Assembly (NCBI GenBank): GCA_050084985.1
Contig: JBITNC010000001.1
Coordinates: forward strand, 72,416,001-72,480,000
DNA: 64,000 nt
Direction of reading: 5' to 3'
Source: Nageia nagi
Lineage: Eukaryota; Plantae; Pinophyta
A program made the position numbers and the translations under genes. How positions within the stretch are numbered: the first letter of the stretch is position 1; each line of letters opens with the position of its first letter. Of this stretch, positions 1-56,100 are shown one piece after another. The notes under the pieces are model-generated. The model did no database searches and was not told where the DNA came from. It saw only the letters and a program-made list of their open reading frames with translations.

Positions 1-296
1 TAAATGCATCTGTTGTGCCTTACACAACTCGCCCCCTAAATTTTGCAATTTCGAGGACCCTCGACAATCTGGAGCCTTGAATGTCAAGTCAAAACCATTT
101 CCCCTTGTCTCCAGTAAATCCATAACCTGAAATTGAAGTGTAATCGCCTATCCAGCCCTAGCCATCTCAAAGCGTATAGTAAAACCTCATAAATTAACTA
201 AGTCTGGCTGAGTGTAGATCAAGGTCTAAGTGGTATAGGGAAGTCCAAGTCAAGATTCAAGCTGAAACGAACGGACCCAGGCTCCTCCTAGGCTTG

Positions 297-1245
297 GCGC
301 ATGCTCCAAGAAGACAAGATTGTCTTTTTGGGACGTGCGCCCAGCCTGGAAGGAAGCCTGGCTTCGAAATTAAGTTCCAAAACGCAAACTGGGCCACTCC
401 TTGAACCAACGCATGTCATGAAAAGACAAAATCTTGTCTTTCTGGGGCATGCGCAAGTACAAGAAGGATCCATGAAATCAAGCCCGAAAAAGGACAAGTT
501 AGTGCATGAGAAGACTGGCATAGGCCTCAAAAAGACAAAATCTTGTCTTTTGGGAGCATGCACCCAAGCTCGAAGGTTGCCCGAGAAGACTTGGAGCCTA
601 GAAAGAAGAAATACACTCACCTAAGGGGTTGGCACATGCCTCGAAAAGACACAATCTTGTCTTTTTGGAGCATGTGCCTAGCCTAGGAAGCCCCCCAAAT
701 GGGACGAAATGGAGAATTTGGTAAGGCATGTTTTGAAGCTTGGAGCACACTCCAGCATAGCCAAAGTGGCTAGTGCATGCCTCCAAAAGACAAAAACATG
801 ACTTTTTGGAGCATGCGCCAAGCCTGGGAAAGCATCAGGCGGAGCAAGTATGGGAAAATGATAGTCCAGGGATCAGGAGGCCAAAACAAGGCAAATATGG
901 CCATTTGCAACCCAACACATGCCACAAGATGACAAGATTGTGACTTTTGGGAGCATGTGCCTAGACTGGGAAGTTGGAGAAGTTGGATGGAGTTTCAAAA
1001 AGACAAGATCCTGTCTTTTGAAACCATGCCCCAGGCTTGGGAAGGACCCTGGGTCAAGTCAGGAGGAGAAAATGAGCAAGTCGAACCCCAGAGAATTAAG
1101 CACCAAGCAAAATCAAGGTCAGGACGGTGCTTAGGGTCAAGTTGGATGAGTAGGAACACAAGGAGGGCCAATGTTGGGAATGCAACCACCCCAAGGGCTG
1201 GGCATGCCTCAAAAAGATGAAACTTTGTCTTTTGGGAGCATGCAC
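297..1245 (+). repeat. Array of 8 spaced palindromic ~44-46 bp repeats (GCATGCCTCAAAAAGACAAAATCTTGTCTTTTTGGAGCATGC-like)
   Basis: Copies start at about 297, 409, 518, 632, 773, 915, 986 and 1200. Each is an imperfect inverted repeat; the intervening spacers differ from one another. Confidence 0.9.
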
Positions 1246-1400
1246 CAAGACAAAAAACCTCAGAATCCCAACGATTGGTCCCGGACGGTCAGGAATAAGG
1301 TTTCAAGATGGCACACATCTTGAGGTCGACCACTTCAATGGTTGGGATGTGTTTTCCTCCAAAACTTAGCCAAACTAGGGTTTTAAAAATGCCCACATCA

Positions 1401-1410
1401 GCTATAAATA
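1401..1410 (+). promoter_or_regulatory. TATA box upstream of E1 gene
   Basis: GCTATAAATA lies between the array and the ATG at 1623. Homologous GCTATAA(A/G)AG occurs in E2 (~24416-24425, -) and E3 (~49070). Confidence 0.55.
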
Positions 1411-1622
1411 TTAACTTGGGGACCTCATTTTCCCAAATTCAAATCACACTCTCTTCTACACTTGCACTGAAATTGCAGATTTTTGAGTTTCAAATCCATC
1501 CATTTGCTTGGGGAGGCTTGCGCAAGAGATATAGGATGATAGGAGGAAGACGTGGGGGTCATAGGCTTGCCAAAAAAAAGCAACACATCACCTCGAAGGG
1601 TCCCGTCATTTGTTAGGGCATC

Positions 1623-2664
1623 ATGACTAGTTCCAAAAGCAATTTGGCCAAGGAGTATGCACGAGATCTGGAATACATCAAGCAAGAATGCCTCATCACC
1701 ATATGCGAGCGACAAGACCCTTACCCAGGGGGCTAAATTCTCCAAAAATGGGTTGGCCACTATCAAGGACACAGACTGGCAGAAGGTGGATCCGATGCAG
1801 ATGAGGGAGAAGATTAGGAACAAACCCATCACAAGTTGAAACAAGACATCGTCTTCTTCTCGAGGCTCTCAACTTGTACATTCATCCCATTCATAGCTCC
1901 TTTCCCAGAGTTGTGCTTGGAAGTTGGCCAGCATTGGAAGATGGGTGAGAGTGCTCCGAGACATGAAGGGCAACATCATCATGGACTTCAGCCTCGAAGG
2001 CATCAAGAAGGCATTCCAGTGGATGGTAGAAGGCAACTTTAACTACACAGAAAGAGGAGTCGTTGGCATGCTATCGGGACACCAACAGGGTAGCTGGAGC
2101 AATCAAGAGTTGGATGTTAGAGGAGCACCATGGTCTAAAGGGTAATGCACCTATCAATGCCCCTCACTCCCACTTCTACCCCTCTGTTCAATTAATGATC
2201 CTCATGTTGTCAAGAGTTCTTAGGAAGGAGGATGCATCCAAGTTTCGAAAGGAGTTCTTCGGCTTCATCGTCGAGATAACCCAGGGAAAGAAGATCGAGT
2301 GGAGCAAAGTGTTAAGCGACAGTATCATGGACCAATTGTCATTAGTAGGAACCATACACAAGTTCTACCTCAACTCTTGCTTGGTATACCTATTACTGCA
2401 TTGCAAACCGAGGCCCACAGCTTTAGGAGAGGCAGACTTGACCACAAAGGGAACATACGCAATGTGGAAATGCTATCCTAAGTGGAAGGTCGAGAGAAGA
2501 TGGGAAGACTTCACAATGAGGAGTGATGGATGGGAGTACAAAATTTACAAGGACCTTAAGGGAGAGATTATTGTTGCTAGGATCTCCAACATAGCCCAAG
2601 ATGTGTTGAGAAGACATGGAGACTTCTTCACACACCACCAACACTACTCTTACATCCGTCTCTA
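1623..2664 (+). pseudogene. E1 gene, N-terminal conserved domain (retrotransposon accessory protein, possibly PMD/Transposase_28-like); frameshifted and cut by Athila LTR
   Basis: ORF fragments 1657-1839, 1836-2042, 1924-2145 and 2063-2664 join up. Motifs IPFIAPFPELCLEVG, MLSRVLRKEDASKFRKEF, KFYLNSCLVYLLL, YPKWK and DGWEYKIYKD match E2 (IPFATPFPKLCYEVG, MMSRVTSKEDDYKFRNEF, KFYMNSYLIYLLL, YPKWW, DGWEYQIYKD). Confidence 0.75.
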
Positions 2665-14041: not shown

Positions 14042-14053
14042 TAATGTTATTAT

Positions 14054-15660
14054 GAACATGACGTGAGGGAGTTGGAGCATATGGCCACCGATAAGGTGGT
14101 GAGATGTGTGAGGAACCAAAGACTGGATCGGACTCCACCCCAGAGGCCAGCAAGGATAGCTGCAACGCATCCATCCTCGACCATTCCACAATCAGGATCA
14201 GAATCCTCAGGACCCCAATATGAAGACCATGGCACCCCTCATGGAGAACAAGCAGATAGATAGGAAAATGGTGATCGACAAAGCATGCTTGAAGAAGGGG
14301 AATATGAAAGTATTCCGCAAGACGAGTTAAGAGGAAGGTCCGAGAGATGAACACTAAGCCAGTACCGATCCAGAAAGAGATATACAGGATGCACAAGGTG
14401 AGGAAGGACCATCAGTGGAGATCTTGAATAGCACCCATAATCACGCCACCTCAGAGCCATCATCCTCCTAGAGGAAGGATAAAGACCTCGCTCCAGAGTT
14501 AATGCCGAGGAGAACCCAATTGAAGAGAGGATCCCAATCCAGGTTGTCGGTAACTCTAGGGGAAACTGCAGGGCAAGGTGAGAGGCCTTTGAAGAAGATC
14601 CGAAACAACGTAGTCGTCATTTCAGAAGCAATTGTTGAGACCCATTAGCCTCTGTCGAATCCTGAGTGGGGAGTAGATATAGATGAGTGTCTCGATGTTT
14701 TTAACATGGACGTGGGAGAAGAATTCAGACCCTGAGGGATAGGAGATCAGGTTGGAGAGAGTTCCACTTGCTTGGGGAAGAGTCAGACCTACGTACATAT
14801 GATAGAAAATGTAGTGTGCATCAAGACCATAGTGGCAGACAAGGACAACCCTAGGGTCTTGGAGACTTGAGGCAAATAAATCAGATCATCAACATGGGCC
14901 CAATTAGTGTGACTGGCAGGAAGCATGCTATTATTTCGAATACCGAGGCAATAGCCAAGGATGGGTTGTTGAAGGAAAAAGAGATAAAGAGCTTGAAGGA
15001 GGAGTTGGCAACCCAGAGGAGATTGACTCACGAGTTAGAGTCTGCCAAAGTACCGCAATGAACTCAAGAAGGTAAGACCTCTCAAGAAGGAATGATTGTT
15101 GTGAAACAAGAGGTGATAGAAGAGCCCTTAGCAGGTCGAGACGATTCATCGATATCCTCCACCAAATCTCGTTTGCAGAGGAGCAGTTGAGGTTATTGTC
15201 ACGAATGTGTTAGGCACTCAGATCTTAGACTCTCAGAAACCATGTACTAGATACGAGCAATGCATACTCAAAGACCAAGGACCGAGTTTTGTGAGGACTA
15301 CTAGTTCTATTTGGGTGAACAGCTAGGTACATACTCTTTCTGAGACAAAACACGTGACGCAATAATGATAGGGTCCATGCATGTATGGAACGGATTACTT
15401 TCAGGTATAGTTCTTGGAGGAAGACCATTCGAAAGCAGTGAGGTATGCCTAAGTCACACCTTCCTTCGCCTAATGATGATTGAAGAGATGAACTCCTACA
15501 AATAGCTGTTACTGAGCATTGTTGGGCAAACTGGAAGGACGAATGCAAAGAATGGTGATGAGTTAGAGAGCATGACTGCGCAAACAAAGTTCTAGAATTT
15601 GATGGTGCAAATGATAGAGTCCTGGCATCGTCGAAGATCAGTTCGGTTGGGCCACATTAG
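14054..15660 (+). pseudogene. E1 gene, C-terminal half (linker + coiled coil)
   Basis: NMGPISVTGRKHAIISNTEAIAKDGLLKEKEIKSLKEEL aligns with E2 KKIGWVECKHAINYNVDEMVNQGIKSECKIKELKRR and E3 NMLAKLELTTRKHIVMQNVVVMEQEGYEAKKEGKRLKKEL. Confidence 0.65.
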
Positions 15661-18600
15661 CTTAGTCATTTATTTCAGTTTTCTTTTCACATCTCATGGA
15701 ATCTAATATTATTATCAAACCGTGAAGGATGCGATTGCTCAGATTGAGAGTTTTGATGCTGTGCAATTTCATTGACCGCTTGTTATTTGTGAATTAGGTT
15801 AGGCACATGTTGGTTGCTCCTAAGATTATTAAACCCCATGCTGACTCATTTGTAGGATTTGACATTTCGATATCTTAATACAACTTTGCTATGTCAATTG
15901 CTCTTAAGTGTTGAAGTGGTTATTGATGTTATTGTGATGATATTGTTCATGTTGCAATAGTGATGTGAATGAATGCTAGATAGTGTTATCTGTTTTCCTT
16001 TGCCATTACTTGATGTTAGCTCAGTTTACTTGGTGCATTTCATAAACGTCACTGGAGTGGATGAGAGGTTGCTTGCATATGTTGAGAAGTAATTGACTGA
16101 TATCTCATGGGTGGCATTTCACTATTGGCAGTATTGGTTTGATGTTCTTGGGATGTCTCATTGATATTATTCGCTGCGGGGACTTCACTCGAGCCCTTTA
16201 GTCCCACCTTGGTCCCGTCTTATCTCACCGCCCTGGCGTCACCCTCCGTTCACCCAACTATTCGTGTTGTTGGTTGGTGGGCTGGATAGTGGGTGCTTGG
16301 AACCCGCATTGAACCCAAGTGAGTCGACTTCCAAGAGTCTTTATCAAGTCCATGAATTAGCATGTTTACTCTTGCATTCCTTTCCCACAATCTTTCCACC
16401 ATTTTATCTTTCTTTATTTTCTTCTATTTTTCACTTTCTTTTCGCGGCTTTCGCACCCCAATTTTCCTTTCAGTACTCAAGAAGTGGCCTTGGTGAAGCC
16501 CAAACACAGAATAATCTGAGTCCCTTGAATCGGGTAACCAATCCCCATAACGAAGGGATTAATGTCCCTCCACCTGAGATGTTGGTGCTTTTCCCACTGC
16601 TCTAGGATAGGAAAGAAAAACCCCCCAACACATCCCAAAGTGGTGCTTGTCTTCTTATGCCAAGCGATGCTTGACTCCATAATGGTTCTTCAAATGTGCC
16701 AACTATCCGTCCAAACAATCTTTGAAGGAATTCCTTGATGATGCCAAGATCGTGTAAACATGGAAGCAGCTGTCCCAAAGTGTGGGGCCAAGAAATGTTG
16801 TTGATGATGTATGCCTATTCAACCTCCAACCTTGTGTCATGGTCCAAAACTGATCCCAATGTTCTGCTGTCCCAACAATATGAAAAATCACAGCTGATAG
16901 GTGGTTCAAATGCTGCCAAGTGTTTCTTCTTCATAGGACCTAGTAGTCACATCTCTTTTACCAATAGTACTGAATTTGGTAGGGCTATTCCCAACCAAAG
17001 TAATGTGCAATTGGGTTAATAGTGGACTGATTTTTGATTTCACAAACTCTCTCTCTCTAACCATATCCATCTTCAAACAATCTCCCAACTGAGCTTTACT
17101 TGTTTGTATCATAGTTGTATAGGGATGGTTGTAAGTTTGTACCTTGTTTGGCAACATCAAGATTTATACATGTTTTATGAAGCATCATTGTCGAAATAGT
17201 AAGGACTCATGTTTCCCCTTTATCATGTCATAAACCATGTGTCTAAATGTTCCAAAGGAGGTGGTCGTATGAGTCTCAAAATGTGCCCATTTGTCACATT
17301 TTATCATAGCAGCCCAAGAGAATGGAATACAACTAAGATCATTGGTGTTGTGAGAATTAAAGGGGCTGATATACCTTCTTGAAACTGTCTTTCACTGCTG
17401 CCCAAAATTGAGTATGCGTGGGTGTCAAAGGTGTCTCTTGTTATCATGTGGAGCACCCCTTTGTAGGTGGCAATATGGTTAAGTTTGTCCCTCAAAACTT
17501 GCTTCCCATCTTTCACAAATAATAAAATCAGAGTTGGTGTCTTGGCTATCCCTTGCCATTGGTAGTGGGTTTTGATTCCCTTTCACATGGTCATTACGGC
17601 TGCAACCTCTAAGAGTACTGTTGTCCCTGTTTTTTTGTTGTTTGGAGCAATTTTTGGCAATATACTTCATCCCCATGCACCCCAAACTGAGCATATACCA
17701 AGGAGATGAAAATTTGATCCCTAAACTGTCACAAAGTCCAACTATATTGCTTTTCCATGTGGCATGAGGGTTGGGACTGTCTTTTGTTATCAAAGGCTGC
17801 CTACAAACTCTGTCAAAACTGATATGACTGCTGTCCAATCCAACCGTGTTGCTTTCCCATGAAGTGTGGATGTTGGGACTTGGGACTGCCCTTTTTTGTC
17901 CAAAGCTGTCCTTGAATTTTACCCAAACTGAGTTCACTGCTGTTATTACTGTCATACCCCTTGAAAAGGTGTTATGGCTGATAGGGATAATTCCTAAACT
18001 GTTAAGACTTTCCAAGGGTGTGTGGCATTGATTCCCCCTTAGGGTAACCTTCATCTCTTGCTCAAAGAAACTCATTTCTAGCTTCTAGTAGTTGAAGTTG
18101 ACATCTCCTAATCGTACAACCATTGGACCCTAGAGTGATATGAGGAGAACTAACTATGAGGTAAACATAGAAATCGACTACAATGGTGTAGTTTCCAATG
18201 GTCACTTGAAGATATCTAATCATCCATTTATACTTAGTTTGGTATCCCCTACCATTGGTGACTCCAAACTCTTGAGTTTCAATTCTTTCCAAGTTTCTTC
18301 TAAGGACAAAAGCTTCATCAAGAAAGTTATTGGTGGCTGCATTGTCTAGAGGATAATAATGGGTTCCCCTAAGAGATGCCTTTCTAATTGGAGAGTGGGT
18401 ACTTGATGGGTTTAATCAAGGGTTGCAAATGAGTTCTCTAAGATCCCTCTTGATTCTTTTGGTAGGTGGATGAGGGTTATCTTTTGTAGTAATCTTTTCC
18501 CATATATGTGAGGCCTAGTAGACATTCTAGGTTTTCTTTAAAGTACTTGGTGGGCTCTCAACATTTTTTGGTGAAGTGGAAGAACTAATTTTACCTTTGA

Positions 18601-20129
18601 AATTTGAAGAATGTGAAGAGGAACCAAAAGAAAATGGATTTACATGTGTACCTTCTAGAAAGTACTTGGTGAGGTCTCATCATTTTAAGTGAGGTTATCC
18701 ACCTTTGCTCCAAAGTATTTCCCAATGGCTGCCCTCTTCCTTATTGTGTAGATGAGCCACTTCTAGGCTAGGGAGCATCCCTAAGCCCTAGAAGGTAGAG
18801 AAGGGAAGCATCCCTAAGGTCTGAATCATCCAAGATCTAATGCATAAGATGACGTCTTCAAATGACCAAATGACTTTGTTGATGTGTATTCCTTTCCCCC
18901 CCGCAGGAAAGAACATCGCCCGTGGGTGGAGTAGCGTTACTTACCCCGCTTGAAAGGACTTTAACTCCAAGGTTTCTTTAAAATATATTGATTTCAACAT
19001 TATAGTGCAACGATTTTAAACCATGGTAGTTTGTGGTTGACAGGATGGCCCAGCCCCTTAAGGAAGGTATGCGCTCAGGGATGGTTAACTCACAATTATG
19101 CGGACCTATTGAGGTTTATCTCAATTGATGTTCACGTGACAGTACACAAGCAAAAGGGGTATGAGGAAGAAATATGAGAAGGTTTCGGCGGTTGATAGTG
19201 AAATAAGTAATAGGTTCTTACCGCTGTGCAAGGTTTGGGGCTTTCATCTCTCAGATTTATTAAGAATTTCTCCTTAGGTTATCAAGCAAGGGAAGAAACG
19301 ATTGGGTCTGGATCTTTCCCAAGCAAGAGCATGGGGAAGTAGGCAGGGTGGACAAAGAAGTGAAATGGAGTATTCAATTATCTATGTGCCAGTAGAAGAT
19401 TCCAATCAAATGACACAAGAGTAAAGTGACCCAAAATATCAAACTTTATGCAAACCACAAAAATAGTCATTCATACATTTAAGAAAGATATTCAATCCTC
19501 TTTTCTTAAAGTGCCAATCTTTCAAACAAAATGCTTGTAAATGTATAAACAACACAACAACATAATAAGCATGTCATTTGGGCATCTATGATTCCAAGAA
19601 ATGAGTGACTATACTTGCATTAATAACAAAGTTTCCCAAAATACATACATTGGAAGCCTCAACTCCAAAATGTTTCCAAAGAGAGATTTTGCTTTCAAAT
19701 CAAAAGGAACTCCTAACAAACATATAATTTTGCATACATTGAAGAGTTCACTCTAGCATCTCCTTCTTTTCTACTCTATCTATATCTATCATATCTATAT
19801 CCCATATCTATGTAAAAAAAATGACCTTGCTAGGGTACTTATAGCATATGTCTAACTTTATTAAATGAAGCGTCGCCCTAATATTAATTGCGGTGTTGTC
19901 CTAAACAATCAAGCAACCTTAATACTACTTTGGAAAAAGTGAAACCATCAAGAAAACAAAACTGCAGCTATACAATACCGCTGAAACGTCACATCAATAT
20001 CAAATCACATCACATCACATCAAGTCTTCTTGCGGTTGTGGCAGCAAAAACTCATCCGTCACAACGCAAGTTAAAATAATAATTATCTTAAAACTAATAA
20101 AATAAATATGCATTTTCAACTATTGCTCT

Positions 20130-23100
20130 GTGGGGCTAGCAGCTCATCACGATTGGCAACAAAGACTTTCTCAGAATCCCATGAGACCTATCATCGAAGA
20201 AGGCCCTAGCCTTAGTGAGTCCTATGGCAAGTGCATCTGCAATTCTTCATCTTTTTTGTTGTAGAAATCCAAGATGTAGTGGGAAGTGCATTCCATTTGA
20301 AATTTCCAAATGGTTAAGTTTTGTTGATTTTCAATGTGGGTTCCTGCTCTCAATAGATTTACATCGTTGGTGAAAATGAGCTTTCGGACAGTATTTTGAA
20401 CTTCTTGGATCACGAGCTCAACACGCCTTGACTTCCATCTTCATTAATGAACCCGATCAACTGTACAAACTGACTCAACTAAAAAGTTATAGTGAACAAC
20501 AGATTGTCCCTTGCCTTAGTGAGATTAGTGCATTCTCTTGCCACGAACCTTAGCCAACATAAATGGTAGGTGAACTCTGGCAATTTTGAATTTGGTTTGC
20601 TTGCCCTGCAGACATTTTCCTTAGGTTTTGGATAGTGTGCTCATGATTATGAAAATCCTACAATAACTAGGAAACGACTGCGTTCATATTCTCTTTTGCC
20701 TTATGTTCATCCATGAGGCTAGCCATCTAGAGTAAAAGTTCATAGACTATCCTCATTATGCCATTAACTAGGATCTCCTCGGTTGATGTCACACCAATTT
20801 TCAATGAGGCTTGCACCTTGACATCTTCAATGGACATTTTGGCAGCTTCTATCTCCTTCACCAATTTTTTTTACCAACCATCTCCTTTTCAGCTCCTTGA
20901 TTTTACACTCGCTTTTAATGCCTTGATTGACCATCTCATCCACATTATAATTGATGGCGTGCTTACATTCTACCCACCCAATTTTCTTGACTTTGAACTC
21001 CTTGGTGTGGACTCGCACATCTTGTAAATGTTGAGGATGTTTCTTCTTAGAATAGCATCTGTTGATGGTCATCGCATCCTTTTTCATGGATACGAAGGTA
21101 TCTATTTCTTCAATTGGAGAATCCTCAGAGGCATTCTCCATCCTTTGGCTATATTCTTCTTTATCACTACAACAACTCATCTGGAGGTCTTTGATGACTG
21201 CGTCAATATGAAAATCATACTTTTGTGGACCAGAACTTGATGCAATATTGGCCATGGTAGTGTGCATGTTAGTGGTGGGAATTCTCTAGGGATCTCCTCG
21301 ATTCTCAACTATTGGCTCTTGACTTCAACTGGCTTATCTTTGATCTTTAATGGTTTATGGTTGCCATGCTCTAGTTGTTTTCTCTTCTTTCTTTGGTCTT
21401 CCTCTCGCCTTTGTCTTCTTCATCTCCTCCATCTCCTCTGGCTGTATAAGCCTTGCTTAGATTAGAGGGCTTACTAGGGGTTGTTTTGGAAACTCCTTCT
21501 TTGGGGATGACCTCCTTTTCCTCCTTGGAGTGGTGGACTCAGAGGAGGTAGCCTTGTTCACAGGTATCGATCCAGTAGGTAAAGTCTCGCTAACCTTCTT
21601 TGTTTCGGATTTTCCTTCAATGTCTACAATTTGGGTATCTTCAGTACCAGGTTGCGAGTCTTCATCATCCTGATGCTCTCTTTTAGTTTCTCCCTCTTCT
21701 TCTCCTGAACTAGATTCAAATGAGCCGAAAGATTCATACGATGTCTTAGAATCTAAAGGTGAACTTGAGTGTCAGGCTCTTCAGGTTGGTTTATTGTGGG
21801 TGTATTTTGGATATTGGTTTGGTTTCTGCTTCAATAGGCTCTAGGTATTCAATTCCTACATATTCTTCAACAGGCGTCACAAGACTTGGGAGAGCCAAGG
21901 GATATTCCACCCAAACTGGTACTATGGGCATCATGGGGACGTTCTTTGGGTGGCATTCTCAAGCTGTTGGAGTGGGAAATCAAGATACCCCATTTCTGCC
22001 ATGATATGGACGTATTTGGTGATTTCTTTGATAAGGAGTGGATTTCGGGTCTAGTTCTGCCCAAAGTGGCATATTCTCCTATTCCTCCTTGGTGTCTTCT
22101 TACTCTTGAAGAGGAGGTGGATTTCTCAACCGGGCTATGTGAGGCTCACTCAAATTTTGGATTCTTTTATTGATCCGGCCTTCAACCGCCAACACTTGAT
22201 GTACTTTCTTGAATTTGCTTTTCCTCTCTCCTATTCCTGTACCTTTCCTTGTCTCCTAGAGGTCTATGCTCATAGGTTATAGGGTTTATGAAAACTTGCC
22301 TATAAAAGACTTGCATTCTCCCTTCAGGGTCATAATGGGAAGTACCTGTTCCTACTAAAACAGTAGTAAGAACAGGTGTATTCCACAATGGTAATGGGGA
22401 GATTTATTGTAGCAAAATTCCATGAGAATCAACCGATTACTAGCATAGCGGGGTAGGAGATAAGGCTTGACTTCGGAACCATAGATCCACATGTATGTGT
22501 GTGAGGGGTCTTCCAAAAAGTAACTGCATGCCCCCGGATGGCTTGTACTTTAGAGTTAGAAATTCTCTTCACCATTTGTTTCCCTTTAATGTCCTTGTAT
22601 ATCTGATACTCCCATCCATCATTCCTCATGGCATAGTAATCCCATTTGGACTCCATCCACCACTTGGGATAAGCTTTCCATATAGGTTTTTCAGGATTGT
22701 TCAGGATTTCCATATCTGCATGTGTCAATTTCTGATTTTTTCCACTAAGGAGGAGGTATATGAGGTAGGAATTCATATAAAACTTCTTTGAGGAGCCGAT
22801 ATGAGCCAATTGGAAGAACAGGGAGTTACTTATCACCATGCTCCACTTAATCCTTTGCTTGTTCCCGATCACAACTATGAATCCGGTGAATTCGTTCCTG
22901 AATTTGTAGTCATCCTCTTTGCTAGTGACTCGAGACATCATGCTAATGATTCTCGAAATTGTGGGATAGAAGTTTTGTCTCTTTGCATTGATCAACTTAT
23001 TCCCCGAAAACTCCTTGCTTTTGTTTTCGAGCCAATCCCTAATGAGGTCTTTGACTCATTGAGATTTCTCATAGTAGTCTAGAGAGTCCTTTTCAGTGTA

Positions 23101-23520
23101 GACAACTCCATTGCTCCACTTAAAGGCCTCCTCGATGCCTTGTGGAGAGAAATGGAGGATCTTCTTGCAATCTATATCATAAAGGGCATGGTCTTTGAAG
23201 TTGGCATGCCTACCCACTTCATAGCACAATTTAGGGAAAGGTGTGGCAAAGGGGATCAAGGTGGCTGAGGCTAAACTGAATGTGCATATGAACTCTTTGA
23301 GCATCTGATTCTTGCTTAATTCATTGATGGAATGCAACAAACGATTGGGATCGGTGTGTGACCATTAAGTGTCCCGGATATTTGAGAGGTTGTTTTTGAA
23401 TTTTGCTTCCTTCAGCAGATCTTTAGGATTTTCTTTGGCAATGTCAATTTGGCTAGGCTCAGTCAATCTAGCTAGCTGAAGTTCCCGAGTATTTCTTAAT
23501 TTGGAGTTTTTCTTTGACAT
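20130..23520 (-). pseudogene. E2 gene, ~1100 codons: conserved N-domain, S/P/E-rich linker, Arg-rich NLS-like tract, coiled-coil C-domain
   Basis: ATG at 23520 (MSKKNSKLRNTRELQ), just after acceptor-like TTTATCTTTACAG. ORF fragments 23056-23340, 22429-22995, 22182-22388, 20827-21267 and 20222-20413. Homologous to the E1 and E3 ORFs. 3' end approximate. Confidence 0.78.
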
Positions 23521-24020
23521 TTTGAAACCTGTAAAGATAAATCAGGTCAGTAGAGAAAGGACTGATTGACACTAGATTGACTAGGGGAGTGGTGGGAAAT
23601 GATGTAAGAGACATATGATACCTGGAAAACTTGTATGCCTTGATAGAGGGGTGTGGAAATGCAAACATACTAGAAGTTTAATGTTTACGACGAAGAGGTG
23701 GTCGGCCTACTTAATGCAACGTCTAGAATGTGCTTTAAACAATTAATGCATGCATACATCCATTTAGCCACCTTATGGTACCCAACTTGTTATGAAGACA
23801 TGCATGAATGCTTGAAGGGCTTGGTCGCACCCAATTTAAAAGTTAATTTTCTAACTTGGATGATGTGACAGATAAGAAAGGTTGACTTTTATGTGACGTG
23901 ACAAAAATGGAGGGACGAGTACTAACATGGACAATAGACAACTACTAAATTGACTAAGACCAAACTTGACATATATTTAAGTGTGGGGCCCCTTAAAATG
24001 GGACTTCTTTAATGTGTGAG

Positions 24021-25391
24021 TGGGCGCAACTCGAAACAAAGATGCAAATGTAACCTTTAGAGATAATGCGACCATGCAACAAAGCATTTGACTTGACCAA
24101 ATTCGATTAAAACTTGCAAACTTTAATGGGCGCACTGTTTTCAAAAGATAGAACCTTATCTTCTTGGAGTCATGCGACCACACGTATTTAAGATGACCAA
24201 TGCAAAGTGAAACCAATGCAAAACTTTAATATTGAAACTAATGAAGAATGCCATGATGTTATTGGAAGGAAAGGTGATCAATGAATATGGACCGTTTAAC
24301 TTTAATGCAAGAAAGGGTGGTCGCATGCTTCAAGAAAATGCAAATGTAACTTGGAAAAACGATGCCATCAACCTTGGAAGGGTAAATGTTTTGCAAAAAA
24401 TTGACTAAGCCCCTTCTTTTATAGCTATCTTGGTTGCCAAATGGCAACGTTTTGGTGGCCAAAGGACAAATTCTCAACAAGTGTCGAATTTCATGCAAGG
24501 CATGTGGTCCGATCGTTCCAAAAGGATGCAAATGTATCTTCTTCAAACCATGCGATCAAGGATAGGGGTGCTAATTTTCACACTTAATAAAAAAAAAATG
24601 AACCGAAAGGTGGTTGCATGCCTCCCAAAAGATGCGAATGTAACATTTTCAAACCATGCGACCAAGCTGAATTATGCCGAAAAGTGGACACTTGATAAAA
24701 AGATGCTTGAATAGAGTGGTTGCACCTTGCTCAAAAGATGGAATGGTATGTTTCTCCAACCATGCGAACAACCTTTTGAGTGTATTGGGCTAACACTTAG
24801 CAAAAACTTTGAAGGCCAATACAAGAAATGGGGTGGTCGCACCCTTTTCATAAGATGAAATTGTAAGTTTTGCCAACCATGCAACAACCTTGGAGCACTA
24901 CGTTGAACCAGCCAAGGTAATAATGAGAGTCTCTTCTCCTTTATACCAACATGTCATGCCAGGTGGCCATGCTAGACAACTAGGATGAAGGTCCAATGAG
25001 GTCAACGTGAGCTTCATGGTGCACGTTCAATGCCAAGATGGAGGTGGTCACACCTTTTCAAAACGATAAAAATGTAACTTTCCTGAAACATGCGACCACT
25101 TTTGGATGAGGCATTTGAGGATACTTAGCCAATTTATAGGCTCTAAAAGTTGAAAGAGGGGTGGTCGCACCTTTTACAAAAGATAGAAATGTAACTTCTC
25201 CAAGACATGCGACCACCTTGAGAGGAATTAAACTTGGTGAAATTTTTCCATTTTACCTTACTGCCTTGAGCTTTAATAGACCCTTTTGAGTGTCATGTGT
25301 CAGTGAAGGGCGACCATTTTAGAAAGAATGATGAGATCATGGTCGCACCTCTTTGATAGAAGGAAATGTATCTTCCCTCAACCATGGACCA
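24021..25391 (-). repeat. Array of 10 spaced ~53-bp repeats, + strand consensus TGGTCGCAY..CAAAAGATGCAAATGTAACTT..CATGCGACCA
   Basis: Copies start at 24021, 24127, 24318, 24505, 24611, 24717, 24834, 25045, 25162 and 25340. Inverted terminal arms TGGTCGCA / TGCGACCA. Confidence 0.92.
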
Positions 25392-26187
25392 CTACTTTTT
25401 GATGTGAAAACTTTGTGATTTTGCTTTGTTCCCAAAACATAGCCAAACTTTGTCAGATGCCTGCATTCCCTCGTTCTTTCATTTGTTGCAAGCAAGTATT
25501 CCGGTGAATTTTAAAGTTGCACATCGGGCTTATTGATTAGCTCATCTCTTCACTATGCTTTTCAAAAGGGTCTCTCCTTATTGGGCTCTGTTCTCCACTT
25601 TAGCTGAGGGTCCCCAAATTTCGAAAAATTAGGGAGGTGTTGCTTCGACAACAGACTTGCCTTTATAGCAGTCCAAACTTGTCATTATTCCCTAAAAGGT
25701 AGCCGACTAGGATAGAGGGAATAATAAATTATTAAATGGTGCCAAACCTCCCTAATATGGCTGACTTGGACATGGGGGCATAATTCATCTCAATGGCCCT
25801 TTTTCATAGCTTGAATAAATATATAATTTGCCCTTTTTGAGCGTTTGCATTAAAGGCACAAATATAGATATCATAAATACATAATTTGACAAATAAATCA
25901 TTCCTTTTCTAAGTCCTAAAGATCACAATGAATAAGCATGATGGGAGATGTTTAGATGTTCCAAATTGGGGACATTCCAAAGGAAGGTACAAGCAGTGGT
26001 AATGCAAAACAAACCAACAAGATTAGCCAACCGCATAACATTTCTATAGGCACTAGTAGTGTAGTGAGGTGTGATTTTTTGTCCCTTGTAGTAGTCTTGG
26101 TCACCAACCCTCACTTGACTCTACATGGAACATGTATAGGGTGCAAGAAGCTAGAAAGGAAGTGGCCGATTTCTAGTATTACTTGAC

Positions 26188-34569: not shown

Positions 34570-34572
34570 TTT

Positions 34573-34590
34573 TGGCGCCGTTGCCGGGGA
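34573..34590 (+). promoter_or_regulatory. Primer binding site, tRNA-Asp (Athila-typical)
   Basis: TGGCGCCGTTGCCGGGGA, 3 nt after the LTR end. Confidence 0.9.
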
Positions 34591-34780
34591 ACGGTGTTGA
34601 TTGAGCTATCTCTGTAGTTCTTAAGGATAGGGGACTTGACAGAGCCAATTTGCAATCGGGTGCCGTCCTGGTTCCTCAATTCTTAACAGAATGAGTGGCC
34701 CCAATAACCTATATTAAGAATCTGCAGAGAACTGTTGTTGAAGTTGTGATAGTTTGGTTTGATTATTTGCTTGAGAATGT

Positions 34781-45840: not shown

Positions 45841-48117
45841 CAACTTGAGGAGATTTGTCTGGTTTTCTTTGATGATATATTGGTGTACTGTTAAATGTGG
45901 GAGGAACACCTGCAACACTTGGACATCATTTTCGGCATTTTGTAAGTTCAAAAATTCTTTGCTAGGCAGTCCAAATGCGAATTTGGGAGGACTGAAATTT
46001 TGTATTTAGGGCATGTGATCTGCCATGAAGGAGTGAGGATGGATGAGCAAAAAATTGTAGCAATCTAGAATTGGCCGGTACCCACCCCCCTTTGACACAA
46101 TTAAGGGGATTTTTGGGGCTATGCAATTACTACATAAGGTTCATCTGTGGTTTCTCACACTTGGGTGCCTCTTTGACACAATTAACCAAGAAAGATGCAT
46201 TCGTTTGGAGTGCTGAAGCTCAAAGGTGCTTTTGAGACTCTAAAAAAAGTTATGTGCTCTTGTTCAAAAAGGACAGCCAATAGCATTTGAGAGCAAGAAA
46301 CTCACTAATGTAGAACAAAATTTCATGTATATGACAAGGAAATGTTGGCTATTATGCATGCATTGGAGAGATTTAACAATATCTAGTATGTGAGCCTTTC
46401 ATTATCAAAAGTGACCATAATAGTTTGAAGTATTTTCTAAGCCAATCAAATTTGAGCAAAAAGCAACAAAGATGGGTAAGTAAACTTCAATCCTTCGATT
46501 TTGAGATTTAGTAAATCAGGGGGAAAAAGAATATAACTGCTGATACATTATCCAGGAATCCATCTTTTTACTCTCTCTTCTATTTTTGCTGATTGAAAAA
46601 TGAATATCATGTTTGAATATGTTAAAGATTAATTTGCTCAAAGCATTTTAGATGGGAAGGTGAAAAATGAGAGGTATACAGGAAAATATAGGCTGATGTA
46701 GAAAAATAACATGATTTTCTTGACCCTTAATTCAAAAATGAAGGAAAGGGTGCTCCATGCTTTGCATAATATACTCCTTGCAGGTCATCCAAGAATTTGA
46801 AAACGTACAAAGCAGTTAGGAGAGGTTTGCATGGAAGGGGATGAAACTGAATGTTTATAAGCACGTTAAGGAGTGTGAGCAATGTCAGGAGAATAAGGAG
46901 GAAAATATGAAATCGGTAGGATTACTTTGACCACTACCCTTCCACAACAGAAATGGGAAGATATTTCTATGGATTTCATCATGGGCCTTCCAAAAGTGCA
47001 AGGTAAAGATTGTATTTTTGTAGTGGTGGATAGCTTACTAAATTTGCCCATTTCTTTGCCATTACCATCACATATACAATAGTACAATTGGTTGATTTAT
47101 TCTTTAAAGAAGTATTCAGATTGCATGGTTTTCCAAAGAGGATTGTGAGTTATAGGGACAACAAGTTTATGAACATGTTTTGGCAAGAGCTCTTTTAGTT
47201 GAGTGGCACTAACTTGACCCCAAGCACTAGCTATTCATCACAAAGTGATGGACAAACAAAAATAGTAAATAAATGGATAAAAGGGTATTTGAGGCATTAT
47301 GTAATAGGGCAGCAACAAATGTAGGTCAAATGGTCCATACTGGGAGTATTGCTACAACTCTATGCATGAATTGTCTATAGGAATGTCCCCTTTCAAATCT
47401 TTGTATGTTTATGATGCTCCTAACTTTGCAAATTTGACTTTTGATGAAGGGAAAGCCCCAAAAGCTAAAGATTTTTGCAAAAAAGCCAAGATATTATAAC
47501 AGCTCTACGAGAAAACTGCAAATGGCCCAAAATCTCAAAAGAAGTATGCTGATCAAAGGAGGACCGATAGAGCTTTTGAAGTAGAGGAGATCGTGTATTT
47601 GAGGTTGCAACCATTTAGTCAATCCTCACTCAAGAGAAAAAGAGAAGAAAAACTACAACCTAGGTTCTTTGGTCCATACAAAGTCTTACGCAAGGTTTGG
47701 GAAGCTGCATATGAGCTTGAGCTGCCCAAAGAAAGTAAGATTCACAATATTTTCCATTTGTCAATCCTTAAGAAGGCGTTGGGACAGCAATATACATCAT
47801 CAACTACCCTTCTGTTGAGGAAGCAACACCCCCCTTAATTTTTCGAAATTTGGGGACCCTCAGTCAAAATATGATAATGGAACTTAGCAAGAGTGGAGCT
47901 TTGGGAGAATCACTTTTTAGAGCATAATGAAGACAAGGTAGCCAAATGAGCCCAAAGTGCAACTTTAAAATTCACCCAGAATATTTGCTTACAACAAATG
48001 AAAGGTACTTTCTAAGTATCAATCCAAATGAAAACGAAGGAAATGCAAGTATCAGATGAAGGCCTAGTTAGGTTTCGAAGAATGTGCAAAATCACCTAAT
48101 TCTCACATAAATGGTGG

Positions 48118-49460
48118 TGATCGCGTGGCTAAGGAAGATACATTTGTGTCTATTTTTAAAACTGCAATCATAATCCTCACTTCCAAATAGCCGCCCCTTC
48201 AATGACACTTGGCACCTGAAATTGTTTATAAAAGAGCAAGAGGCTAAGACAGAAGTATTTGAAATTTGCTAAGTCAAAGGTGGTCGCATAGTTTTGAAAA
48301 GTCACCTTTCCATCTCTAGAAAAGGTTTGACCATCCCCTCAACACTATTTTGAGCCTATAAATTGGTTGAGTGCGCCCAAAGTTCACCCTCCAAGCTGGT
48401 CGCACGGTTTGGAAAAGTTGCATTTGCATCTTTTTGGAAAGGGCGACCACCCCATTTTGGCATTCAATGTGCATCCTCCATCTCATTCGACCTCCATTCT
48501 GGCTATTTAGTAGTTTACACGTGGCATACAAGCCAGTATGAAAGAAAAGCAAGGTAACCTAATTTTTACTTTAGCTAGTCTAACGTGTTGCTCCAAGGTG
48601 GTCGCATGGATGGCAAAAGTTAGAATTGCATCTTGTTTTGAAGGTGCGACCACTGCCATTCCTGCATTTTGGTCTCCAAATTGGCTAGGTGTTAATCTAA
48701 CACCCTTGAAAGTTGGTCACATGGTTGGCAAAAGTTAGAATCACATCCTTCTTTTGGGGTGCAACCACCCCTTTTGAGGAATTTTGAATTGAATTTGCTT
48801 GGAGTAGTCCATTTTGGGACATCTCCTAGTTGGTCGCATGGTTTGAAAGTGTTACGTTTGCATCTCTTGTGAAGCATGCGACCACCCCCCTTTTGCTTCA
48901 TTTTTGACCAAGTGTTGAATTTTGGCACCTCTATCCTTGGTCACATGGTTTGAAATTGATACATTTGCATCTTTTGGAGAGATGCGACCACAACTTGTTG
49001 CATGGAACGGAACACTTGTTGAAAACCTTGCCTTTAGCTGCCGAGGTATTGCCACTTGGCAATGAGAGGGCTATAAGAGTGGGAGACTTTGTCAATTTTA
49101 CATATCATATGCCTTCCCAAGGTTGGTCGCATGGTTTTGCTAAGACAAATTTGCATCCTTTTAGGAACATGTGACCACCTTTTTTGCATTAAAGTCAATC
49201 GACCCTATTCATTGGCCACCTTTTTAGTCATTGAAAGTTTGCATTTCATTTCACGATAGCCACCTTTTTAGTCATTGAAAATCTGCATTTCATTTCACGA
49301 CAACCACTTTAGGGTTGCATGATCGCAAGGTCCCAAGAAGATAAGGATCCATCTTTTGAAAATAATGCGTCCATTGGAATTGCAAGTTTAATTAAAGATG
49401 CATGGTCGCACGATCCATATGAATCACAATTGTATCTCTGTCTTGAATTTTCCCGTGCAT
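48118..49460 (+). repeat. Array of 10 spaced ~53-bp palindromic-arm repeats, homologous to the E2 array
   Basis: Starts at ~48118, 48281, 48397, 48599, 48714, 48831, 48938, 49124, 49320 and 49404. The spacing pattern parallels E2. Confidence 0.9.
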
Positions 49461-49735
49461 GCATGCAAGAAGTCTTATTTTTAGGAAAGGGTCCCACACT
49501 TTGATGCTCATCGAAATTTGGTTTCATTTAGTTAGTCTTTGTTATTTGTGTTTTTACATCGTCCCTTCATTTTAGTCACATTGCATAAGGTTAATCTCCA
49601 TGTTTGGTCACATTATCCATCCAAGTTAAAAAGTTAACATTCTTGAAGGGTGCGACCAAACTTTTGTGCATTCACATGGGGCCCATGAGTTAAAAACGTG
49701 CATATGCATTAATTTTTCAAGGCTCATATCGTGGA

Positions 49736-51728
49736 TTGTCACCTTCTCCTGCTCATACTACATCTTCACCAAGAAAGACACTCTTGCTTCCTGCAGGAAA
49801 GAGGCAAGAGGCTCCAAGGGAACCTATCCCAGGACCTAGCAAGCGTAGCATGGTGATGGCAGATCTCAGAGACGTTGGCTATCATGCTCTCTCCTCAGAT
49901 GTGCTAGATGATGTAGTGAATGTAGCTTGTGCTAGTGATTCACCTACCAAAGTAGTCCCTTCCAGACCAATTCATTCTCCTAGGTGTAGGGAGAAAGTTC
50001 CCCCTTTACAACCAAATTCCAGTTCCAGCTCTAAACGTTCCACTTCTTCTTTTGATGAAGAAACTGATGAGGACCTTGGCCGTGCGGTGGAAGATTTTGG
50101 AAAAGAATTGGAAAGCCGTAGTGAAAGAGAAGAAGAAGAAGATGATGATGTTGATAAAACTGCCAATATTCCTAACTAGGAGGACGTAGTTGTAGATGCT
50201 TTAGCACTTGATGAGACAAAAGTTGAAACCATCCTAGATAATGAGATTGTGGATGTCAGTACTTATGATGATGACGTCCAGATAGTTGGAGAAAGGTGCG
50301 CTAGGGAAGTGGATGCCTCGAAATCCTCTCCTGCTGACATAAGGAGAAGTCCCCTTCTTCGCATAAGTCCACTAAGAGGACGAGTCATATTGATCTCCTC
50401 AGCCATGAAACAAGGCCATGTCCATAGGCGGTGATGGAGGAGATGACAAAGAGAAGATGAAGGAGAGATTGAAGAGCAGAAGAATAAAAGGAGGTAGGAA
50501 GAGCATCGGGGCAAAGAGATAACCCTAGTTCAGATCACTTCAACAAAAGGGGTCAAGAAGATTGGTAGAGGAAGGTTGTTGGTTCAAATATTTCCCCCTC
50601 GACCAGCAATTGAACACCCTGATCTTCACTTGGATGCCTGTCTTAGAGCCCTCAACATGAGCACGGTCCATGATGAAGACATAGATGAGGACTTACGCTT
50701 TGTAGATGAAGAGGAAGAGCTTTCGGATGGCAAGAAGATTATAAGGGTTGACACTTTCGTCTCCACCTCTCAAAAAGAGATCTTCATTATCCATTGCTAT
50801 TCAAAGGAGAAGCACCCTCAGAGAGCAGAGGACTGTGTTATTGAAACATTAAATATGCTTGCGAAATTGGAGTTGACAACCAGAAAGCACATAGTTATGC
50901 AAAATGTTGTAGTCATGGAGCAAGAAGGCTACGAAGCCAAAAAGGAGGGTAAGAGGTTGAAGAAGGAACTCACGGATAGCAAGAAAATCATCAGAGAGTT
51001 CTAGAAGGTTAGCATCACCCCCTTAGATTTACAGAGGCAAGCTTCCTTCCATGAAGTGTGGGAATTGATGAAGCAGCAGCTTAAGAAGGAGGTGATGAGG
51101 CTATCGAGAGATTGTCTTCACAAACTTACAAGCTGATTGCTGAAGATGTTGAAATCAAAGACCTCAAAGCAAGCATCTCAGCACACCTTGGCAAGTTGGA
51201 TACCTATCTTCCCAACATCTCTCACCTATAGCACGTTTTTGCTGATAAACCAAAAAAATTATTCTATTGCCACGAGTTCACCTATCATCATGATTGGTTG
51301 AACCATAGACTCAAGAAGTACAATGCTATCTTGAAAACTAGAATCCCCTTGAGAAAGGAGGTAGAGGAACAAATGAATGAGAATATTTATCAACTCAAGT
51401 TCCAAGGGGAAGACAACAATGTAGGAAGAAGGAAGCAATAATGGCAAAGGCTCATAATCTGTTGTAGGAGCATCTTGATATTGATGACCTTAGTTTGTTG
51501 AAGGTAGGGCATCCCATCATCCATGAGAGGCGGATGGTCATCTGGAGACACCAGATGCAGGCTACATCAAAGAAGATTGAAGATTATTTTCAGCAGAATG
51601 GCATCACTGTTGGCATGATCTTTAGGGGCATGCAGAAGATTGTTGCATTCTTAGAGGAGACCATTGAGTCATACAGTCTCACCAATGAGGAGTGGAACCC
51701 CGCTAGTATCGGATTAGATTTGGCCTAG
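49736..51728 (+). pseudogene. E3 gene, C-terminal half
   Basis: DLHLDA..VDTFVS..IIHCYSKEKHPQ and IWRHQM match E2 DFHIDA..IDTFVS..INRCYSKKKHPQ and IWKFQM. Confidence 0.75.
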
Positions 51729-53144
51729 GTCTGATCCACCCACAAATTTCGTCTACGGTATCCTGTTTTGTGTTTAATGCATGATTAACGTTGGTTTATT
51801 ATGTCAGACCATATTTCATTTGATTTGACTGGTGTAGGGATGAGGTTTTTCTCCCACCAGATCAAATCCGTCAGACTCTTTTATGGCTCTAACTGGTTAG
51901 GGATGAGGTTTTGCTCCCACCATCCTAGATGTCAAACTTTTCAGACCTTTTATTGCATATCAGATTTGCTTTTGCATAGATTAGGGGTAGATTAGACGCA
52001 TTTTGACGATGGCATTTATATTTTGTCATCTTTTAGATGCCACTTGCATAGTTTTGTGTGGACGATCTGATTTTGTATTGATATGCGTGTTGCGTGTGTG
52101 CACACCATATTAGATTTGATGCCTTAAGGGCAACACTTCTAGTGGCCTATTTATACCCCATCCAGGCCATTTAGAAGGGAATTTTTGGTGCTAGGGATTT
52201 TGCATTGGATTAGGACAAAAGAAATTTTTGCATTGGACTTTTGCATATGAGATATTTACATTGGAGGATCTTTGCAATTTTGCATCCAAATTGTTGCATG
52301 ATTTGACGCATTGTTGCATATGCGAGACTTTGTATTTAATAGAAATATTGTATATTTGGGCTCTTTCACCTTTGAGATTCTTGCTATCAAGCCTATGTAT
52401 GTAATCAATTTGAGCAATTGCATCTTTTAGTATTTACATTCCATTGCATAGAATATTGCTACATAAGGGGTTCTATGCATGTTCATTATTGAAGATCATT
52501 ATGAATGTATTTCTCTTGAGGAATGAGATTGTAAAGTTTATATTGTGAAGGATATCATTTGTGGAATTGTGCATATCTGGATGGTTCTCTCCTGAGGTTG
52601 CATATTGAATATCCATTTGGTTGGTTTGAGTTGTTCTTTGCATGATTTGCACGTACGTGACTGTATTTTGAGGCCTATAGCTTGACTCCACTATCCTTTC
52701 CCACCCAGTCTTCCACCGAGACCCAACAGCTTGTTGCTCTCGTCTAGTAGTGATTTGAGCATATTTGCTATTTGCTGCCTGACTTGATAGTGAATGCATC
52801 AACCTTAATGAATTTGAAGATGACTGCTGAGAAACTGCATCATTGATGATACTTTCATAAGCCTTTCTTTCCTCGTGTTCCCTTGCATTTATCCGTATTT
52901 TTGTCGCTACATTTGTGATCTTTCTTTGCTTTCATTCATATATGCAGTCTTTCCTCATTGTGAAAAGGAACTCCAACATGTATTTCCCTTGTATACGGTT
53001 AACAACATACATCTTTGACTACTGAGCCTTGAAGACCATATTCTATGTGAGCGCTTGGGTAACCAGTTCTTTCAGGCAATTCAAGTAACGCTATTTCCTC
53101 CAAGTCCTGTGCATGTTTTGGACGGAAAGAAAAACATACCAACA

Positions 53145-56100
53145 CCTTCTTCATCTTCCCAACCAGTTGTTGCACCTCACTGTCAAGAGATTCCTCAAGC
53201 ATAGGATCAAGGCAAGACGGTGAATGAAGAGGAGAATGAATCTCATGCTTCATCTTATGATCTTGTTGACGACCTCAAGAAAACCAGATCAAGTGCCTCT
53301 ATATATGATTTGATTTAGAGGGATAGACAGCACGAGCCCATCACGAGGGAATTGAATAAGATTGCTCCAAAGCTGAGAAAAAAATGTATAGCCAAAAGTA
53401 TGGGATCTTCCAAATTAATTGAACCACCCAAAGCAATCGAGGCAAAGGCCCTTGCCATTCATAAAGAGAAAGACAAAGGGGATTCCTCGCCATTCTTGTT
53501 GACACTAAGGATTGCGGGCAAAAACTTGCATAATTGCATGGTAGATTCTGGAGCTACCGGGAACGTCATGCCGTACAAAGTTTGCAAAGATTTAACCTGC
53601 CTATCGCAGAAAGTCCGAAGAAGGTCACACAACTAGACAAAATTGAGGTCAAAGTAGTTGGAATGTTGCCATAGGGGCATATCCAGATAGCTTCTAAACA
53701 ACGAATCCAACAACATATCGACGTTTAGGTTGTCGATATCCCTAACACCTATGGGATTTTGCTAAGCCGGGATTGGTCTTGCAATCTTAATGGTTATATC
53801 TTTACTAATTATTCTCATATGTGGCTACCATGGAAAGGACAACCTAACCAAATTTGAGCAAATAGTGAGCCTAGGCTCAAAGAGCTCATTACAGAGTACA
53901 ACATAGTCAATGAGGTACAATTTATACAAGAAGAATTAGGCGTCTATTCTTTAGACCTCTTGAAGGATCTCCAAAAGACCCTCAAAAAGCAATTGGATGA
54001 GCAAGCTGAGTTGCCCTTGTACATCAAGAAAGGCCCAAAGTCAAGTTGTGCACGAAAAGTCATCTATCAGGATCAAGAGCATGAAGAAGAAATTTCAACC
54101 TGATGAAAGGAGATGGAGAAGAACAGCTTCGGAAACTCAAAGAAGCTGGATACGTTGTGTCCAAGAATTAGAAATTGAAAGTCTCAGCGAGGAAATTTTC
54201 AAAGCCCTCAATAAAATGCAAAGGCATCATTCACTCTTAAGGGGAGAGCTCCTGGAACACTCTGAAGATAAGACCGTCCCTTGCAACAACCCAAGAGATA
54301 ACCAAGAATATTCCATTAAAAGGAATAGTAAGAACCACGAAGAACAGTGTTGGATTCTTAGGTTTGACATTTCCCAAATCTAAGCTTGGGAATGGAGCAG
54401 GAGTAGAGCTTCAATGTCCTAAAGGAAAACGCTATCATGCATCATACAATTTGTAGTTCTATTGCACCTGTAATACTACAGAATATGAAGCTTTCATTCA
54501 GGGACTGAGGATGGCTTTGAAGAAAGGAGTCAGACACCTCCAGGTTGTTGGTGATTCCGAATTGATATTAAAGCAAATTTGCAACATATATGCTTGTAAG
54601 GATCCTAGATTGGGTTTGTACAGAACTCGAGTTTGGGACCTTGTTAGAAATTTTGAATCTTTCAAAATTGGAGCAGTGCCCAATAGTCAAAACTTAGTAG
54701 CTGACTCTCTAGCTGTGGTCGTTGGTACCTTCCAACAAACTGAAAACGTCAACCTGCGGAAGTTTATAGTGCATATGATTCCTACCTCTTCCATTCTTGG
54801 CAATGTTTACAATTTTCAGGTCTTTCAAGATAAACAACAAATCAAAGATTTCATGTCCAACTCAGGCGTATTTGCCTCTCAGGTTATCGAGGAAGACTCC
54901 ATCGATTTTGATGAGGACCTTTCTCACAATCTAGAGGATGGGTCATTCAACTCAGGAAAAATAAAATCCCTAGGGGAATTGTCTCTTTGGAGCGGTTTTC
55001 GATCAAGATATGTTCCAGCCTCATATGGGTAACCACATCCAGGCGAAGATGCAAAAGTAGTCAATTTGGACACAAAAACTGATCCTCGAATCATTTTGAT
55101 TGGCAAGTCATGTGTCGGAGCAGAAAGAGAAAGGCTCATCGATGTCATCAAAGAGTACATCAACATCATTGCTTAGAAATATAAACAATTGAAGACTTAT
55201 GATCCGGCCATCATCACACACTATCTTGTTGAAAGCTGAAGTCAGACCTTTCAGGCAGCAACAAAGGGTTGTCAACCCCATTTTAGAACCGATTATCCTT
55301 CAAGAAGTCTAAAAGTTAGCACAAGTAGGTATCATCTTCCCGGTTTGGCATTCATTTGGGTGGTGAACATAGTGCTTGTAAGAAAGAAAAGCGGAGAGAT
55401 AAGGGTATGCATAGATTTCACTTCTTAATCAGGCTTTCGAGAAAGATTATTATCCCTTACCTTCCTTGGATGAAGTATTACATATAGTTAATGGCTCTTA
55501 GATGATGTCATTCCTGGATGGGTATTCGAGATATAATCAAATCATGGTTGACGAAAAGGATAGGTTGAAGATGGCTTTCACCACCAAATGGAGAACATTT
55601 GCCTATGGTTGTATGCCTTTCGGTCTAATTAATGCAGGTGCTACTTTCAATGAGCCATGGATTTTGCTTTCAAAGGATTGTTCGGGAAGTCTATTATCAT
55701 ATACATGGATGATCTTATAGTATTTTCAAAGGATAGATCCCAACATCCACAAGATTTAAGGAAGGCCTTCCAAAATGCCAGAGCTTCGAGATATCTCTTA
55801 ATCCAAAGAAAAACATATTCGGTGCTTCAAAAGGAAAGTTGTTGGGGCATATTATTTCAGAGCATGGAATTTCAATCGATCCTTATAGAGTCATTGCCAT
55901 TCAAAAGATTCCTATCCTTCTAGCATTAAGGAACTAATGTCATTTTTCAGGAAGATAATTTTTGTTCGTAAATTCATTTCCGGATTTACCGAGATTGCAA
56001 AAGCCATCAATGACATGTTGAAAAAAGATTCAAGCATATTTTGAAATGCGAAAACCAAGAAAGCCTTTCAAGAAATCAAAGATGCCATATCAAATGCTTT

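Follow-up and report, generated by a model that had tools for sequence, protein, structure and literature searches.

Gene-bearing units with long terminal repeat ends, probably solo LTRs of a gymnosperm Ty3/gypsy lineage, in Nageia nagi

A 64,000-nucleotide stretch of the Nageia nagi genome (contig JBITNC010000001.1, positions 72,416,001 to 72,480,000, referred to as the window) carries four related units, E1 to E4, which are probably long terminal repeats (LTRs) with an internal protein gene and likely represent a Ty3/gypsy lineage of gymnosperms as solo LTRs. The complete unit E2 (minus strand, 18877..25653) is 6,777 bp with TGTTG...CAACA ends and is flanked by a GACTT target site duplication (TSD; left copy 18872..18876, right copy 25654-25658), and the coordinates and flanks given for it in an earlier model-generated interpretation of the letters alone (the sequence-only reading) were verified. 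In order from its 5' end, and all on the minus strand, E2 comprises a conserved terminal motif TGTTG...GGGGACCCTC (25604..25653) that is common to E1, E3 and a gene-less unit described below, an array of GGTYRCA / TGYRACC motifs of the E2/E3 type (23823..25347) including inverted pairs 44-45 nt apart, a candidate upstream TATA (24416..24425) that has a counterpart in E3, a second, degenerate TATA candidate (23638-23649), an acceptor-like stretch or candidate splice site (23521..23535) directly 5' of the ATG, and a decayed open reading frame (ORF) of approximately 1,120 codons (20130..23520; ATG at 23520, 3' end approximate at ~20130-20170). A telobox-like TTAGGG with a TATA-like motif, the putative LTR core promoter, follows the ORF (19836..19881), and a tail that would represent R-U5 closes the unit with the conserved 3' motif (18877..19835).

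A scan of metagenome contigs gave at least three related loci (L001, L002 and L003) among the 577 pattern matches listed, all with the same 3' terminus as the window units. L002 resembles E2, at 68% over 3.2 kb, and L003 resembles E3 and E4. The TGTTG...GGACCC 5' motif occurs three times in the window, at 11 (E1), 25653 (E2) and 47813 (E3), the 3' ends of E1, E2, E3 and E4 can be aligned to each other, and TG...CA termini are present in E1, E2, E3 and at the 3' ends of the three contig loci. The ORF of L001 is split by a reversed, gene-less unit of which 1,687 bp is visible (~1.75 kb estimated, the 3' end lying beyond the contig), with an E1-type 5' motif, an array (motif AAAGTCATAATTATGACTTT), a single TATA motif and a tail, and without a tblastx match to five ORF-bearing sequences. 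Its arm and tail resemble those of E1 (z 25 and 47, with two control regions at background) and the tail is collinear with the E1 tail over ~750 bp. The gene-less unit has the appearance of a normal LTR whose ends match those of the gene-bearing units. As several subfamilies with saturated synonymous sites have the gene-bearing form, the short form would most simply have lost the gene later.

Past the stop codon, TTAGGG is followed 15-45 nt on by CTATWWRTA in E2, E3, E4, L001, L002 and L003, and this motif lies 968 (E2), 998 (E3), 983 (E4), 1,030 (L001), 984 (L002) and 990 (L003) bp from the 3' end. The pattern had three matches in the window versus 0.09 expected, all in the tails of these units; as it was derived from the same tails, it is the constant position that counts as evidence and not the number of matches. 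The tail promoter of E1 is degenerate (~-835 to -795) and aligns with the TATA of the gene-less unit. As the sole promoter of the gene-less form corresponds to the motif 3' of the ORF, we infer that the ORF lies in U3 and that the LTR promoter is downstream of the gene. The sequence-only reading had placed its only TATA before the gene, where candidates do occur in E1, E2/E3 and L003, with an acceptor-like stretch 5' of the ATG in E2 and L003, but it missed the better conserved TATA motif 3' of the ORF. The upstream TATA of E1 (1370-1412) has the form TAGGG...CTATAAATA, as does the promoter in the L001 tail, a hint that one promoter may have been duplicated from the other. Genes in U3 are known from retroviruses (MMTV sag and HIV nef) and Cassandra carries 5S rDNA in its LTRs, so that an LTR-borne gene persisting in solo LTRs has parallels; those genes, however, are far shorter or are RNA genes, whereas the gene described here encodes a protein of ~1,100 codons in a plant retrotransposon and has an apparent promoter of its own. 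The available text of reviews puts the extra ORFs (eORFs) of plant elements in the internal region (PMC7264820, PMC6431247, PMC11728184), in agreement with the earlier remark that Tat/Ogre extra ORFs are described outside the LTR, and searches of open-access text for a ~1,100-codon protein gene inside a plant retrotransposon LTR did not find one.

The E2 ORF accords with the ~1100 codons first proposed, though it is broken, with a longest stop-free piece of 208 aa and ~10 apparent frame changes relative to L002. Protein identity was 41% between E1 and E2 and 36% between E2 and E3, within the ~30-45% estimated earlier by eye. The protein has an N-terminal globular domain, a low-complexity middle and a C-terminal part that is coiled-coil-like according to a crude heptad score applied to homologues only. 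A search of 1.84 billion representatives with the ORF returned 79 matches (E<=0.001), at least three of which (P0048, P0055 and P0083) were excluded from alignments as apparent repeat artefacts, and one of ten proteins looked up fell in a named cluster, Taxus chinensis hypothetical proteins (a weak match, E 2.6e-4, 22%). Together with the TatII-type pol in the window, this points to a gymnosperm as the likely host. Selection was assessed with 28 ORF-segment pairs, 14 of which had at least 40 aligned codons; the best-scoring segments were picked, which biases the ratio downward. The dN/dS values of the six pairs with finite dS were 0.10, 0.14, 0.20, 0.27, 0.27 and 0.50, while synonymous sites were saturated in the remaining eight (amino-acid identity 28-46%), and differences by codon position between E2 and L002 (778 codons) were 0.24/0.24/0.49. 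The comparison of copies suggested in the sequence-only reading thus gave ratios below 1 in all six cases rather than neutral ones, and the gene was clearly under purifying selection during subfamily divergence. As a solo LTR is unable to copy itself, elements that still replicated would have been the ones exposed to this selection.

The N-terminal domain of E2 (22492..23376, minus strand) has a predicted fold akin to that of VANC21 (PDB 9lnk), although the fold match is middling and sequence identity is 4-5%. Of the domain checks proposed earlier, the one on fold gave this middling likeness and the one on PMD (PF10536) gave no match: neither DUF1985 nor PMD was matched in any of 53 aligned members or 12 further pieces. 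The array offers a second point of comparison. Thirty of the 46 window matches to GGTYRCA/TGYRACC lie in the 5' arms of E2 and E3, which total 4.19 kb, nine inverted pairs are spaced 44-45 nt, and the E1 5' arm has AAGACA-N-TGTCTT five times. VANC proteins bind short motifs arranged as family-specific tandem repeats within their own elements, according to the accessible part of PMC5735166, and the parallel with the present arrays is suggestive only. The likeness extends to the predicted N-terminal fold and to family-specific repeat motifs in the non-coding DNA of the same element (PMC5735166, in part; PDB 9lnk), but VANC comes from Mutator-like DNA transposons of eudicots, and binding and demethylation could be carried over to the present protein only by analogy.

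A DNA-binding, anti-silencing role for the protein is tentative and rated somewhat below an even chance. Equally serious, and likewise short of even, is the possibility that the LTR architecture is correct while the protein serves the element in a more general way (as a chromatin tether, nuclear import factor or particle helper), not as a sequence-specific anti-silencer, and the array is a host transcription-factor enhancer. A common fold proves no function and the match is middling, the gene-less unit retains an array, and CpG observed/expected in the arms of E2 (0.50), E3 (0.46) and E1 (0.35) is not above that of a neighboring TatII pol (0.48) and so gives no sign of durable shielding from methylation. 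A general role is, however, harder to reconcile with the action of proteins of the same fold, VANC and the PMD proteins MAIN/MAIL of the host, which counter silencing at specific DNA motifs, and with inverted motif pairs that hold a 44-45 nt spacing in nine cases.

The interpretation of the units as solo LTRs gains from the gene-less homologue that shares both ends and from the core-promoter motif kept 3' of the ORF, as well as from dN/dS below 1, the mixture of 4- and 5-bp TSDs, and forward eORFs that are about equally frequent 5' and 3' in the TatII elements of REXdb. TSDs surround single units in E2 (5 bp) and E1 (4 bp), that of E3 being doubtful. The interpretation falls short of proof because no copy is joined to a primer binding site (PBS), polypurine tract (PPT) or gag-pol: in the window and the three contigs a PBS followed none of seven 3' ends and a PPT preceded none of four 5' ends (the E1 flank being 10 bp), and paired LTRs around a PBS-gag-pol-PPT interior were not seen, further scans adding nothing. 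This bears out the earlier statement that none is attached, and Pfam scans of two stop-free pieces of E2 yielded no match to gag, reverse transcriptase or integrase. These end counts are the chief result that weighs against solo LTRs. Zero intact elements among ten ends, which are not fully independent, is improbable if the solo:intact ratio is 0.14 (P 0.002) or 1 (P 0.017) and acceptable if it is 4-10 (P 0.16-0.42), and low removal rates have been reported for conifers, Ginkgo and cycads. Beyond the 3' end of the contig copies lies protease-coding DNA in L002 (RVP_2, E 7e-4), DNA for the C-terminal portion of the ORF from a different unit in L003 (E 2e-7) and non-coding DNA in L001. Gag-protease DNA from a chromovirus-like element adjoins the 3' ends of both E2 (window 16631-18876) and its closest relative L002 (L002:4180-4700), at differing positions.

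It is improbable that the units are instead a non-autonomous DNA-form element moved by a gypsy-type integrase or by an integrase-like transposase of the Ginger/GingerRoot type. In favor, all 11 ends examined lie within unrelated DNA and several copies have inserted into other elements or into the ORF of a fellow unit (L001, L003), but when the E2 ends were compared over 150-1000 bp, direct and inverted repeats scored no better than shuffled sequence, and no inverted repeat was longer than 5 bp, so that E2 lacks the terminal repeats of a terminal-repeat retrotransposon in miniature (TRIM), a large retrotransposon derivative (LARD) or a terminal inverted repeat (TIR) DNA transposon; no integrase or transposase domain was found in the ORF pieces scanned, and the order of array, TATA and tail together with the gene-less homologue is typical of an LTR. 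Of the two explanations offered by the sequence-only reading, solo LTRs are supported in part while a distinct integrase-mobilized unit found no positive support. Also unlikely is that the true LTR is the ~1.75 kb short form and the ORF an ordinary internal eORF, with the long units being deletion products in which the eORF became joined to the beginning of the 5' LTR on one side and to the terminal part of the 3' LTR on the other: the short form exists, E3 and E1 show that large deletions and mosaics happen in the window and published plant eORFs are internal, but two deletions at matching sites would be required in at least four subfamilies near synonymous saturation, a PBS motif scan revealed no PBS or PPT remnant at the inner junctions, and a unit without a PBS and a repeated R could not be copied once formed.

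If the units are LTRs, the chance that their parent is TatII is about even, and this is the best guess among TatII, Tekay, Athila and TatIII. TatII is gymnosperm-specific, and aRH before RT and RH marks TatI/TatII in the available text of PMC6317226 and PMC13477047. The 27 TatII elements in REXdb have 5/4-bp TSDs in proportions of 51/49% and a size of 8.3-18.1 kb, with forward eORFs 5' in 23% (eORF-5'F) and 3' in 26% (eORF-3'F), the most balanced of any tabulated lineage (Tekay 33% and 18%; PMC6317226). An ORF in both LTRs would yield this balance, although the table gives no position. The units resemble TatII in their 4/5-bp TSD mix, a mixture also found in Galadriel (62/38%) and Tekay (88/10%; PMC6317226), in forward eORFs without a CDD match, in gymnosperm range and in the presence of a TatII-type pol in the window. 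They differ in that the accessible part of PMC6317226 describes TatII eORFs only on either side of the polyprotein, without placing them in the LTR, and the portion of PMC4408406 available reports no eORF in lineage II (representatives of ~8.7, 9.6 and 14.6 kb). Ogre/TatIII share a large accessory ORF, a PMD/VANC-type fold (predicted here), a coiled-coil-like end and LTRs up to 6.5 kb in Ogre, but in the same partial sources (PMC4408406, PMC6431247) their eORFs are internal (antisense and at the 3' end in TatIII), and the present units are without a PF10536 match. The TatII-type pol remnant (53145..56558, plus strand) lies between E3 and E4 and has aRH, RT and RH in order, which was confirmed downstream of E3; as it is without most of gag and a PBS, it does not establish parentage. 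The PBS of TatII is one for tRNA-Asp or tRNA-Asn, and the units had no attached PBS to compare with it.

The other window copies are less complete. E1 shares the conserved ends and has CATC flanks as previously described, a 4-bp TSD with 10 bp of left flank within the window, but it is not intact, being interrupted at 2665-14041 by an Athila element plus a deletion. Its 5' part (11..2664, plus strand) holds the terminal motif, the AAGACA-N-TGTCTT array, a TATA at ~1402 and the start of the ORF, and its 3' part (14042..16630, plus strand) the C-terminal region of the ORF, the degenerate promoter at ~15795-15840, the tail and the CATC flank. E3 (47813..53144, plus strand; tail promoter motif 52125-52155) is a mosaic of an E2-type 5' arm and an E4/L003-type 3' part, in which the first ~1.85 kb is E2-like (66-80%) and unlike L003 in 300-bp windows, while the remainder is L003/E4-like with just two short matches (25-48 bp) to E2, and the ORF is without its N-terminal half. 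Its conserved start motif and the CCTTC on both sides stood up to inspection, but not its status as a clean insertion. By translations read by eye, the left flank is the end of a chromovirus-like integrase and the right flank the gag-protease region of a TatII-type element, and since these derive from different elements CCTTC is either chance or a genuine TSD with a later deletion. It is doubtful as a TSD, and E3 should not be tallied as an independent clean insertion. E4 (56559..58044, minus strand; tail promoter motif 57531-57561) consists of the last ~1.5 kb and is cut at 58045 by another LTR element; its 3' end aligns with those of E1 to E3 as claimed, but reads CCATCA and not CAACA. The 3' part of E3 and E4, of one subfamily, are 3.4 kb apart, beside or within the same TatII pol, and family members are nested in each other's ORF in two of the three contigs (L001:1-1687; L003:5516-5721). 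Abundance or insertion preference may underlie both observations.

The window as a whole is a nest of plant retroelements, including Athila-type gag-pol, chromovirus-like pieces and the TatII-type pol. Two Athila-type copies (31600-45700 and 2665-14041) are in opposite orientations and 90-96% alike, with a PBS at 34573 that we take to be of the tRNA-Asp type, a 24-bp tandem array in the LTR region, and a forward eORF 3' of pol with a weak Transposase_32 match (E 0.003) and coiled-coil matches. Within the Athila copy inside E1 is a hAT-type DNA transposon (7358-13196; DUF659 and a weak Dimer_Tnp_hAT). A small, young LTR unit (8697-10693, minus strand) has 166-bp repeats with 100% identity and, internally, a duplication of 280 bp (99%); PBS motifs, presumably of the tRNA-Met type, occur at 9000 and at 10525, and the unit resembles what we would call a tandem TRIM. 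The element that interrupts E4 (58045-63968) has ~800 bp repeats (82% alike) starting with TGATGTTCC and minus-strand ORFs of 464 and 211 aa without a Pfam match, and gag-pol was not seen in it.

It is likely that a Ty3/gypsy lineage, possibly TatII, keeps a whole accessory gene within U3, in a layout that would run from the 5' terminus through the array to a gene under a promoter of its own, and then to the LTR core promoter and ~0.9 kb of R-U5. Because reverse transcription places U3 at both ends, each element would hold the gene twice, and recombination of two ~7 kb LTRs would leave a single copy with TSD, array, gene and both promoters. The protein might bind the array of its own LTR and counter silencing, and the gene-bearing solo copies so formed would since have decayed. 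That a Tat lineage of gymnosperms took a VANC-like sequence-specific anti-silencer into U3 beside its target array, making every LTR, solo ones included, a trans-acting subfamily cassette, is a more doubtful proposition. What the extra ORFs of plant retrotransposons do is an old question, and as protein and candidate target array occur in one unit and vary together between subfamilies, cross-binding could be assayed. If the proposal is true, LTR-LTR recombination, the main route by which the host removes such elements, would spare the anti-silencer, and the lineage would escape standard LTR finders because its LTRs exceed their length caps (6,000 bp for REXdb in the available text of PMC6317226, and 3,000 bp in another survey). 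Should LTRs of ~7 kb be common, capped surveys would overlook such elements, and for gymnosperm genomes both the solo:intact ratio and the ages assigned to LTRs would be skewed.
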